From positions 1,312,001-1,376,000 of the forward strand of contig CAVXGK010000001.1 of assembly GCA_963761305.1 (NCBI GenBank): a stretch of 64,000 nucleotides of DNA, read 5' to 3'. The translations under genes were made by a program, and so were the position numbers. The notes below the pieces were generated by a model. It was not told the DNA's origin, ran no database searches, and saw only the letters and a program-made list of their open reading frames with translations. Positions within the stretch are counted from its first letter, which is position 1. Every line of letters starts with the position of its first letter. Source of the stretch: an uncultured Gemmatimonadaceae bacterium. Its GTDB lineage: Bacteria > Gemmatimonadota > Gemmatimonadetes > Gemmatimonadales > Gemmatimonadaceae. Positions 9,195 to 11,475 of the stretch are shown here, piece after piece.

Positions 9195-9209
9195 CACGTT
9201 CGGACCAAC

Positions 9210-9360
9210 AACGGCTGGAACGGCAACGATTTCGCGGATTGAGCGGATTACGCGGAAAACCATTGAAGGATTTTTCAAAAGAATCTGTTATTTGTTGTTT
9301 CCGTGAAATCCGCCTCGTCCGCGAAATCGTTGCAGTTCAGCTGTTGCAGTTCCAGCCGTT
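9210..9360. repeat. Intergenic long palindromic element (CGGA-periodic arms)
   Basis: Perfect 16-bp inverted repeat 9223-9238/9318-9333 and perfect 12-bp inverted repeat 9210-9221/9349-9360 around an AT-rich loop; lies between convergent genes. Confidence 0.85.
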
Positions 9361-9373
9361 CTGTTTTTGGGTC

Positions 9374-10732
9374 CTAGGTGACATGCGGCAATGGCTCGAG
9401 GATTTCCACGACCTCCTCCTTCTTGAAAAAGCGCGCCCAGCCGAGCGGATCGGACTCGTGCATCGTGTCGCGGATCGTCGTATCGGCGCCGGCGGCGAGC
9501 AGAATCCGAACGACGTCGGCGTGACCGCCGCCCGCGGCGAGGTGGAGGGCCGTCACGTTCGTGCCCCACTCCGTCCAGATCCCGTTGACGTCGGCGCCAT
9601 GCTCGAGCAGCCACTGCACGGCGCGCGCGTCGTTTCGCATGGCCATCATGTGCAGCGCGCCGGAGCTCGTGCCTTGGGCGGACACGAGCTCGGGATTCGC
9701 GTTGACCAATCGGTCGGCCATGTCCCAGTCGCTCAGTGAGAGCGCCGCGACGAGGTCGATCATCGTGACGTTCGCCGAGCGATGACCGCGTATCGCGCTG
9801 TCGAACTCCGCGAGCGTCATCGTGCGAATCGCGTCGACGATCGGCCGGTCGATGCCCGGCGTGTGCGCGTAGGCCGACGGCGGGTTGCCGGCTGCGTCCA
9901 CCGCGAGTGGATCGGCTCCGAGTTGAATCAACAGCGCGACCATCTCGGGGCGATTCATGCGAATCGCGAAGTGCAGCGGCGACTGGTGATTCTCGTTGCG
10001 GCTCATTCGCTGGTTGAGCGCGCCGGCATTCGCCGCCACGATGCGACGCACTTCGTCCTCCAATCCCATCGCGATCGCCGAAAAGATGTGGTGCCGCGCG
10101 CCGCGGCTCACGAGAAAATCGGCGACCGCGCGATGGGCCGCGTCGTCGGAGCCTTCCCAGCACGTCGCCCAGCCGATGACCTCGAGCTGGTGGTCGTCAC
10201 CATGGCCGACGACGTCACCGCCCGCGTCGGCGAGCCGTCGCACAACGTCGAGCGCGCCCCCCGCCGCGGCCCAGTGCATCGCGTACGTATTGTCGCCTCG
10301 TTCGCGCGCGTTCACGTCGAGCCCGCGCTCGAGCAGCAGATTCACGCCGCCGAGGCTGTCTTTGTGTGCGGCCGATCCCTGTTCCTTGAAGGCCGCGGCG
10401 TGGAGCAGCGTCCACTCGTACGGCTTGTCGCGAATGAAACGCTTGTCGGGGTGCTCGTCGAGCAACGCGCGCAGTCGGGGCACGTCGCCCTTTTTCGCCG
10501 CGTCGAACAGCTGGCCGTCGACGCTGAGCGAGTCGACGTGCGCTTTGAGCGCGCGCCAGCTCGGGAAGCCGTACTGTTTCGCGATCTCGAATTGCGCTTC
10601 GGCGAGCTTCGCGTCGGGCTCGGCTTGCCGCAGCTCGGCGAGACGGCGCTTGGCTTCCTTGCGAAGCCACTCGAGATTGGGCGCGTCGGGCAACGCCGAC
10701 GGTGCGGACCCAGGGGTCGCGTCGGACATCAT
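9374..10732 (-). CDS. Ankyrin repeat protein with N-terminal helical domain
   Basis: Multiple TxLHxAA...LLxxGADVN repeats; N-terminal LPDAPNLEWLRKEAKRRL...AQFEIAKQYGFPSWRAL; GGAGG RBS. Confidence 0.92.
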   Translation of the reverse strand: MMSDATPGSAPSALPDAPNLEWLRKEAKRRLAELRQAEPDAKLAEAQFEIAKQYGFPSWRALKAHVDSLSVDGQLFDAAKKGDVPRLRALLDEHPDKRFIRDKPYEWTLLHAAAFKEQGSAAHKDSLGGVNLLLERGLDVNARERGDNTYAMHWAAAGGALDVVRRLADAGGDVVGHGDDHQLEVIGWATCWEGSDDAAHRAVADFLVSRGARHHIFSAIAMGLEDEVRRIVAANAGALNQRMSRNENHQSPLHFAIRMNRPEMVALLIQLGADPLAVDAAGNPPSAYAHTPGIDRPIVDAIRTMTLAEFDSAIRGHRSANVTMIDLVAALSLSDWDMADRLVNANPELVSAQGTSSGALHMMAMRNDARAVQWLLEHGADVNGIWTEWGTNVTALHLAAGGGHADVVRILLAAGADTTIRDTMHESDPLGWARFFKKEEVVEILEPLPHVT

Positions 10733-10874
10733 GCACCTCCATTCCTTGGAAAGGACCGAGTCCTTTCGAACCGCCCGCCGTCCGCGTTAGGGGCGAGGAA
10801 TAGAAGTTTGAATCTGAAAACGACAGGGTGGGTTGAACCCTTTACGCGGACCGTCGGCCGCCCTTCGCGGCCAT
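10733..10874 (-). ncRNA. Candidate structured cis-regulatory 5' leader RNA
   Basis: Three helices (10856-10872; 10780-10787/10844-10851; 10749-10767) between a predicted promoter and the ankyrin RBS. Confidence 0.55.
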
Positions 10875-10880
10875 GCCGGA

Positions 10881-10909
10881 ACGCTATGCGCGCCGGGACG
10901 AACGAACAA
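10881..10909 (-). promoter_or_regulatory. Sigma70-type promoter of the ankyrin gene
   Basis: TTGTTC-N17-TAGCGT on the minus strand. Confidence 0.55.
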
Positions 10910-10980: not shown

Positions 10981-11475
10981 TTGCCCCGCTCTCTGATAGT
11001 TCGCGCCGGCCTGTTCATTCTGATCGCCCCAGGCGCGATCGCCGGTTGGCTTCCCTGGTATCTCGCCGGCTCTCGACGCCCACGGCTCGACTCCCCGCTC
11101 GGCGTCATCGGCGCCGTCTTCGCGGTCCTCGGCTGGCTCGTGCTGCTCTGGTGCGCCCGCGACTTCGCCGTTCGCGGCCGCGGCACTCCCGCACCTTACG
11201 ATCCGCCGCGCCAGCTCGTCATGGACGGCCTCTACCGTTTCGTTCGCAATCCGATGTACGTCGCGATCGTGACCTCCGTCCTCAGTCAGGCCGCGATGTA
11301 TCGATCGCGGGCAGTCCTGTGGTACGCGGCGATCGTCGCGCTTTGCTTCCACTTGCGAGTTGTGTTGTACGAGGAGCCCAAGCTGACCGAATTGTTCGGC
11401 CAGTCCTTCGACGACTATCGGGGGCGCGTGCCGCGTTGGGTCCCGCTCGTTGCTCCGCGACGCCGAGCGCGGTAA
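10981..11475 (+). CDS. Isoprenylcysteine carboxyl methyltransferase / PEMT family membrane protein
   Basis: GRGTPAPYDPPRQLV.DGLYRFVRNPMY...EEPKL...YRGRVPRW. Confidence 0.88.
   Translation: MPRSLIVRAGLFILIAPGAIAGWLPWYLAGSRRPRLDSPLGVIGAVFAVLGWLVLLWCARDFAVRGRGTPAPYDPPRQLVMDGLYRFVRNPMYVAIVTSVLSQAAMYRSRAVLWYAAIVALCFHLRVVLYEEPKLTELFGQSFDDYRGRVPRWVPLVAPRRRAR

Follow-up and report, generated by a model that had tools for sequence, protein, structure and literature searches.

A predicted double-pseudoknot leader RNA that accompanies a small N-terminal protein module in diverse bacteria

The window, the whole 64,000-nt stretch of DNA analysed here, carries on its minus strand a leader (10727-10872) that lies directly 5′ of an ankyrin gene. 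The locus raises the question of whether this leader is a structured RNA of a known kind and, if it is structured, which part of the downstream protein it accompanies. The first-pass annotation had pointed to promoter hexamers, hairpins, a GGAGG and an ATG, all of which are present on the minus strand where it had placed them. The elements of the window copy, in their order along that strand and with the RNA helices as predicted, are:

10904-10909, minus strand: putative -35 hexamer TTGTTC, read from the sequence, 37 nt 5′ of the first hairpin
10881-10886, minus strand: putative -10 hexamer TAGCGT, read from the sequence, with a 17-nt spacer after TTGTTC
10856-10872, minus strand: P1, the 5′ hairpin, whose loop-side nucleotides 10864-10861 form PK1
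10844-10854, minus strand: Px, a 2-bp stem (10854-10853 with 10845-10844) whose loop carries the 5′ kissing strand (10851-10846)
10830-10840, minus strand: P3 hairpin, 3′ of a conserved purine-rich junction
10825-10828, minus strand: 3′ strand of PK1, pairing with 10864-10861
10796-10806, minus strand: anti-Shine-Dalgarno (anti-SD) strand of P5, pairing with 10746-10736 (-16.9 kcal/mol in the window copy)
10772-10795, minus strand: P4 hairpin (10795-10791 with 10776-10772) whose loop carries the 3′ kissing strand (10785-10780)
10749-10767, minus strand: inserted hairpin, found only in the sub-lineage of the window copy
10736-10746, minus strand: Shine-Dalgarno (SD) arm of P5, with GGAGG at 10740-10736, predicted to be paired
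10526-10690, minus strand: N-terminal three-helix module (approximately residues 14-68), Glyoxalase_8/PRK05973-N-like
9374-10729, minus strand: coding sequence for module plus ankyrin repeats, 451 aa

Support for the promoter comes from the family. TTGMY occurs at -43 to -28 in 78 of 171 leaders, compared with 4-8 in four control windows, and TTGAC peaks at -37 in the family and is enriched there. The place of the proposed promoter is thus conserved, although a consensus scan of the window sequence calls no sigma-70 promoter. Transcription probably starts near 10874, a position taken from the family. At the 3′ end of the leader, ATGATG occupies 10732-10727 (minus strand), and a start codon at 10729 appears to match the SD spacing better. 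The sequence GUCCGCGU at 10851-10844 (minus strand) is complementary to 10787-10780, and in a pseudoknot-free ensemble 10 of the 11 positions of the SD arm (10746-10736) have an unpaired probability of 0.00-0.01. Folded by itself, the window leader does not exceed chance (MFE z = -1.43, matched by 16 of 200 shuffles), and support for its structure is comparative. The inserted hairpin (10749-10767) is not a terminator, because no U tract follows it; a terminator-like site at 10841-10825, which overlaps P3 and PK1, was set aside.

The surroundings of the gene hold features of their own. A long imperfect inverted repeat of ~140 nt (window 9209-9346) separates the ends at which the ankyrin gene and its neighbour converge. 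With -83.7 kcal/mol for 9196-9372 and partial copies at ~10 other places in the genome, it looks like a MITE or REP-like element. A divergent gene for a PEMT/ICMT-like methyltransferase (10981-11475, plus strand) shares its arrangement with genes 5′ of several close orthologues.

The comparative evidence rests on a covariance model, R1, built from 44 leaders (29 obtained via the protein and 15 via a DNA pattern) with the window copy left out. R1 matches 82 of 87 protein-selected sources, a set without duplicates and without loci missing the N-terminal module. Comparison of these 82 copies confirms a conserved leader with covarying structure, the covariation extending to six helices. Their mutual information revealed PK1 and Px, the top five pairs being 99-100% canonical. 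In the resulting 23-pair model of this first class of leaders (class I), 93.6% of cells are paired and 15 of the 23 pairs show two-sided changes; none of 500 shuffles reaches the observed level, and slid registers are 36-48% paired. The fold opens with the hairpin P1, whose loop pairs with a strand 3′ of P3 to form PK1, and the loop of Px holds GUCCGC, which kisses GCGGAC in the loop of P4. The kissing helix (99.6% of cells paired, two-sided changes in three of six pairs), P3 (99.7%, three of four pairs) and P4 (99.1%) are nearly always paired, PK1 is 92% paired with two-sided changes in all four of its pairs, and P1 is the worst-aligned helix in alignment A5 (65%). In Px, pair 25-36 of A5 is CG in 55 copies, AU in 13 (the window copy is A-U), GC in nine, UA in four and something else in one. 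When changes were placed on a tree of the linked proteins, the shared fraction was 0.86-1.0 for 10 of the 11 pairs that vary; the null had a mean of 0.37, a 95th percentile of 0.67 and a 99th of 1.0. PK1 pair 15-60 shares seven of eight changes on this tree, and the kissing pair contributes just two events apiece at two positions. P5 was addressed by a comparison that needs no alignment: in 158 of 172 leaders (the 14 with the inserted hairpin were treated apart), the anti-SD strand pairs with its own SD arm at a mean of -16.3 kcal/mol, versus -11.6 when cross-paired and -8.4 when shuffled.

These helices revise the secondary structure drawn at first pass, which had missed PK1, Px and the anti-SD helix (10806-10796/10746-10736). 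Its long-range helix is real, but as a 6-bp loop-loop (kissing) pair; the proposed AAAGGG/CCCCUA extension is unsupported, because its bases belong to two other covarying helices. Within the ~45-nt interior that this helix was thought to enclose lie a hairpin, one strand of a pseudoknot, the anti-SD strand and a stem. The third hairpin of that structure is present at 10767-10749, but it is an insert of one sub-lineage and not family-wide. A candidate helix that could free the SD by pairing with the anti-SD strand reaches -10.1 kcal/mol with its own partner, versus -8.5 when shuffled and -9.9 when cross-paired (-5.8 in the window copy). Such an opening helix is therefore available on average, without covariation or sequence matching. 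No conserved upstream AUG was found among the leaders and only 5 of 148 have a U-rich tract in the linker, so leader-peptide and terminator readings were dropped. Rfam 15 gives no match in the window (best local E 0.31) and no leader match in 17 + 11 further loci of all three classes described below, in line with the first-pass annotation, which did not recognise it as a known riboswitch. On sequence comparison, the leader is a member of an RNA family that is absent from Rfam and, by prediction, doubly knotted.

The RNA follows the module and not the ankyrin repeats. In its own genome, R1 finds four places, all four before a module gene (150 of 2,604 candidates scored). All three paralogues found in this genome carry the leader, as do orthologues, bearing out the statement in the first-pass annotation that similar leaders precede other module genes; they do so whatever the C-terminus. 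One 1,167-aa paralogue (L032, G000:C2:178127-181630) has the leader, an N-terminal module and ankyrins; it also contains another module copy, internal and degenerate, and a region of repeats that look LRR-like. R1 also matches 34 of 39 loci fetched after seed choice and not used in the model; the five misses comprise L223, where the leader is deleted, and four loci whose modules are weak, truncated or inside an operon. Scanning species genomes with a DNA pattern gave at least 119 loci, those listed including Acidobacteriota, Gemmatimonadota, Actinomycetota, Verrucomicrobiota, Planctomycetota, Pseudomonadota and others. When 100 of the listed loci were scanned with R1, 92 proved to be RNAs, and 86 of the 92 have the module just 3′; of the other six, three are cut by the end of the locus, two open with module-like residues in a prematurely ending frame, and in one the module has been lost.

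Genome scans, which scored 22-33 candidates per genome and may for that reason miss divergent copies, gave the same picture. In the phylum of the window, which the names of close protein relatives suggest to be Gemmatimonadota, 42 of 151 genomes contain the module and 41 of 150 contain the RNA, at 71 places. By coordinates, 67 of these places adjoin a module match and two precede module genes cut by a contig end, so that the RNA stands before a module gene at 69 of 71 places; the other two are truncated remnants. A set of 101 genomes chosen around an acidobacterium has 12 RNA places, of which 11 lie next to a module and one at the end of a contig. Among the seven module genes of this set that gave no R1 match at first, two have weak matches (E 0.002 and 0.007), another shows, by eye, the kissing helix and P4, one sits inside an operon, and two have weak modules. 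No intact class I RNA, nor any of the second class described below, was found before a module-free gene among the candidates scored in these 150 and 101 genomes and in 121 alphaproteobacterial ones. An intact module without a leader does occur (L373, operon-internal). Across phyla and unrelated C-termini, the RNA thus tracks the ~55-residue module, not the ankyrins, in a near one-to-one manner. Co-inheritance alone contributes to this coupling, since RNA and module are physically linked. Class I RNAs had no blastn match in plasmids. In viral contigs, 12 of 13 class I pattern matches have no downstream module and were read as chance; among related viral contigs (L069, L070, L073-L075 and L065), the pattern match accompanies a conserved, non-coding-looking stretch before a 62-aa ORF, with no module, and was likewise taken as chance.

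The same arrangement recurs with other leader sequences. In the 121 alphaproteobacterial genomes, all 11 true PF20066 loci fail R1 and carry another conserved leader (class II), which also precedes 73 of 75 metagenomic class II genes with enough upstream DNA, many of them close relatives. A model of 52 aligned copies (R2) has the same helices (P1, PK1, Px, kissing pair, P3, P4 and P5), with P3 inside the Px loop; 94.7% of cells are paired, and two-sided changes occur in 24 of 32 pairs, including four of six in the kissing helix. The class II helix likewise reaches the SD (own -24.7 versus cross -18.7). All 11 strong R2 matches in the 121 genomes are at PF20066 genes, several of which were seed members. 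There were also weak R2 matches at 16 places (E ≥ 1.9e-5); the 11 inspected include none before a module and were all taken as chance. The class I and class II models do not detect each other. PF20066 itself gave one sub-threshold match in 250 genomes of a Burkholderia-centred class. A weak NCBIfam match pointed to genes annotated as PRK05973 'DNA helicase', which start with the module; a class III leader precedes five of five of these, with the same helix order by motif reading and no covariation count. Thirty plasmid records contain a class III RNA, and in five of the six examined it stands before a module gene, one with a different C-terminus. On pSymA of Sinorhizobium medicae (L390:1190-1330), an intact class III leader remains where the gene is gone from the start codon on; five S. 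medicae records have match statistics identical to it. Junction bases differ between the three classes. Copies are found in cultured and tractable hosts, e.g., Sinorhizobium meliloti and Streptomyces.

Several loci add variants and neighbours. An AT-rich fourth leader variant (L251:1360-1500) precedes a module-ATPase gene; its helix order is the same by eye, and it is negative with R1 and R2. A gene for module plus VOC-like domain (L375, G184:C1:5136000-5138300) has a different-looking structured upstream region without an R1 match, which may be a further leader class. In two Agrobacterium plasmids (L336:2353-3322 and L337:1867-2630), a class II leader-module gene lies directly 3′ of repC, possibly an insertion hot spot. 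A near-threshold SorX match (L383:1293-1358, plus strand; 46.1 bits versus a gathering score of 46.6) lies 3′ of a PRK05973 gene and is unrelated to the leader.

What the genes have in common is the module. The window protein combines ankyrin repeats with a Glyoxalase_8 match at residues 16-66 that falls below the cut-off, consistent with the likeness to a glyoxalase-type N-terminal domain noted at first pass. It scores 20.5 bits against PF20066 as an isolated domain and 17.2 as a whole protein (cut-off 23.7), and so lies outside the family as defined. The module aligns to PF20066 positions 5-55 and PRK05973 positions 12-66, both below cut-off, and 26 of 73 modules match PF20066 at E ≤ 0.5; by sequence, the module appears to be a distant relative of the N-terminal third of PF20066. 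An AlphaFold2 model predicts three helices (residues 19-36, 42-52 and 58-69; pLDDT 85.8). Near-invariant residues are A26, A50, K/R27, Q46, G54 and W58, and K/R is frequent at 23 and 51; the net charge of the core is only +1. K/R27 is kept in 72 of 73 leader-bearing modules and lost, by eye, in three of five full-length leaderless ones (L379, L380 and L381). Fold searches with the model gave no clear match, RNA-binding folds included (Foldseek best E 1.6; VIA best Z 4.0), a result that does not imply a novel fold; comparison with PDB sequences was also without a clear match (best E 0.051), and an ESM Atlas search returned unnamed clusters at 0.82-0.84. A profile of the module reaches 9,795 sequence clusters at E ≤ 0.001, and the module also occurs as internal repeats.

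The cargo behind the module is varied. Among 43 of 70 class I downstream proteins scanned, 38 have ankyrins, two have LRRs and three gave nothing, and class II cargo includes VOC, LonN, ClpX zinc finger and pentapeptide repeats. Together with a DnaB-like ATPase, these domains are not functionally coherent. PADLOC matched only the ankyrin region of the window, which therefore gives no defence-system reading.

We propose a portable autoregulatory cassette in which the module, by binding the leader of its own gene, would keep the ribosome-binding site closed, and assign this reading a probability of about 0.5. We favour autogenous repression, since the downstream genes share nothing but the module and regulon copies did not turn up. 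Leaders before genes for nucleic-acid-binding proteins are commonly taken as autoregulatory (PMC11109978; PMC7247131). A sigma-70-type promoter would start the transcript at the first hairpin; P1, PK1, Px and P3 would form a compact 5′ domain, and the Px loop would kiss the P4 loop, docking the SD-bearing hairpin. The conserved basic helix of the module (K/R at 23, 27 and 51) may recognise the docked fold and hold P5 closed. When no protein is bound, the fold would loosen and ribosomes load, possibly with the purine-rich junction capturing the anti-SD. The C-terminal cargo could set the amount of free module, e.g., by binding its own ligand, and promoter, leader and module would travel together as a feedback cassette.

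Several observations speak against this cassette. No known RNA-binding fold matched the module structurally, the net charge of its core is only +1, and simple feedback would not need anything as elaborate as a ~130-nt fold whose tertiary helices are near-invariant. The opening helix lacks covariation, the intact module of L373 is leaderless, the class III RNA of L390 is gene-less, and few helices have two-sided changes in the class I kissing pair. An SD predicted to be closed by default suits an activator as well as a repressor; this and the missing covariation of the opening helix are the weak points of the repression reading.

A default-closed SD would also suit an ON switch, and the junction of P1, PK1, Px and P3 might serve as a binding site for a small molecule or an ion, with kissing-loop docking opening or closing the SD helix and the module linked through serving the same signal or by plain co-inheritance. 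The compact pseudoknotted 5′ domain, the conserved unpaired junction purines and the translational expression platform would all fit such a riboswitch. Regulons of metabolite riboswitches, however, consist of functionally coherent genes, unlike the varied cargo here; a protein module and not a pathway is common to the downstream genes, no intact class I or II copy stood before a module-free gene among the candidates scored above, and the junction bases vary between the three classes. We consider a riboswitch unlikely.

Less likely still is that the real target of the module is a cellular RNA (rRNA, tRNA or similar) mimicked by the leader, or that a released leader tethers or gates the cargo. 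That three unrelated sequence classes retain one tertiary fold suggests a structural constraint that goes further than feedback, many of the cargo domains serve protein recognition or protection, and rRNA mimicry is known among ribosomal-protein leaders (r-leaders; PMC7247131). Against a released RNA, the leaders carry no terminator or processing signal, the U-rich tract being as rare as noted above, the 3′ arm continues into the SD and start codon, and free-standing intact copies were not found, except L390.

It is improbable that another trans factor or a physical cue (ribosome state, helicase or temperature) works the SD helix while the module serves an unrelated role, e.g., oligomerisation or protease targeting, and stays linked because domain shuffling occurs downstream of it. 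Several cargoes are indeed protease-associated (LonN and ClpX zinc finger), and the occurrence of the module as internal repeats would fit. This account leaves unexplained both the rarity of leaderless modules and why one fold accompanies three module branches across three divergent leader classes.

In HDV-like ribozymes, a nested double pseudoknot includes P3/L3 and P1.1, and J4/2 supplies the catalytic C. The two pseudoknots, 2-bp CC/GG-type stem and GG-N-GAA junction of class II resemble HDV features, but a self-cleaving ribozyme of this or a new type that processes the mRNA 5′ end is very improbable: the strand order misfits HDV, no P3/L3 lies between the second helix strand and the P1 3′ strand, most class II copies have U at the putative catalytic position, and there is no Rfam ribozyme match.

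Beyond the autoregulatory cassette itself, we tentatively suggest, at slightly less than even odds, that leader and module are a widespread RNA-protein recognition pair, in which a new RNA-binding domain of three helices is paired with an RNA of double-pseudoknot, kissing-loop type that comes in three or more sequence classes matched to domain branches. The two would have been grafted onto unrelated proteins in thousands of clusters, either as a plug-in regulator of a post-transcriptional, one-component kind or as an RNP whose RNA gates the cargo. Widespread bacterial regulatory RNA classes with complex tertiary folds are rarely newly found, and here a candidate partner is obvious. A function would thereby be given to the so far unexplained N-terminal domain of proteins annotated as 'glyoxalase superfamily protein' or PRK05973 'DNA helicase', and to the module of 9,795 clusters. 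Should the module bind, specificity could be dissected with the three natural RNA classes of one fold, which might also yield orthogonal translational switches; if a metabolite binds, this would be a new riboswitch class whose genes lack the usual clue to the ligand.

How new is the system? True members of PF20066 and PRK05973 also carry leaders of the same topology, whereas the window protein has no glyoxalase or helicase domain. The literature searched names neither PF20066 nor Glyoxalase_8 and contains no description of the leader, although an unnamed entry in survey tables (PMC11109978, PMC5737381 and bioRxiv supplements) is possible; one small supplementary file of PMC8632094 gave no match. 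A comparable entry is COMPASS cluster #630,527 (bioRxiv 10.64898/2026.10.21.760802), a motif 5′ of 'glyoxalase' genes proposed to be a shared 5′ leader. It is also reported to precede flavin monooxygenase and NmrA genes, neither of which was met here. The COMPASS database may contain the leader RNA unnamed. We take the finding to be a new RNA family whose partner is probably a new RNA-binding domain, and a variation on autogenous leader control.

Among known systems, r-leaders (e.g., for S15 and S4) resemble it in being structured 5′ UTRs of the presumed ligand's gene that sequester the RBS, with several RNA classes per protein family (PMC7247131). The window leader has the 5′ UTR position and a predicted RBS-sequestering helix, with the gene product as ligand only presumed. 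Unlike r-leaders, its gene is not ribosomal (Pfam and NCBIfam give only ankyrin and weak Glyoxalase_8/PRK05973 matches) and its product has no known cellular RNA target; the module is a detachable N-terminal tag on unrelated cargo, and three RNA classes share one topology. The second parallel is ANTAR, a small helical domain fused to varied partner domains. PF03861, the ANTAR domain, matched neither the window protein nor any of the 73 modules among the best 25 of 52 families. The cognate mRNA motif of ANTAR can overlap the RBS, as the leader does here, and its targets consist of dual stem-loops whose hexanucleotide loops carry A1 and G4 and which are distributed over regulons (PMC8164766). 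The leader, by contrast, is predicted to be a double pseudoknot of ~130 nt with kissing loops, and was met only before module genes. The system thus works most like r-leaders and ANTAR, yet is a member of neither; should the recognition pair prove true, it would be a pseudoknot counterpart of ANTAR and a ready source of natural, possibly orthogonal RNA-protein switches.
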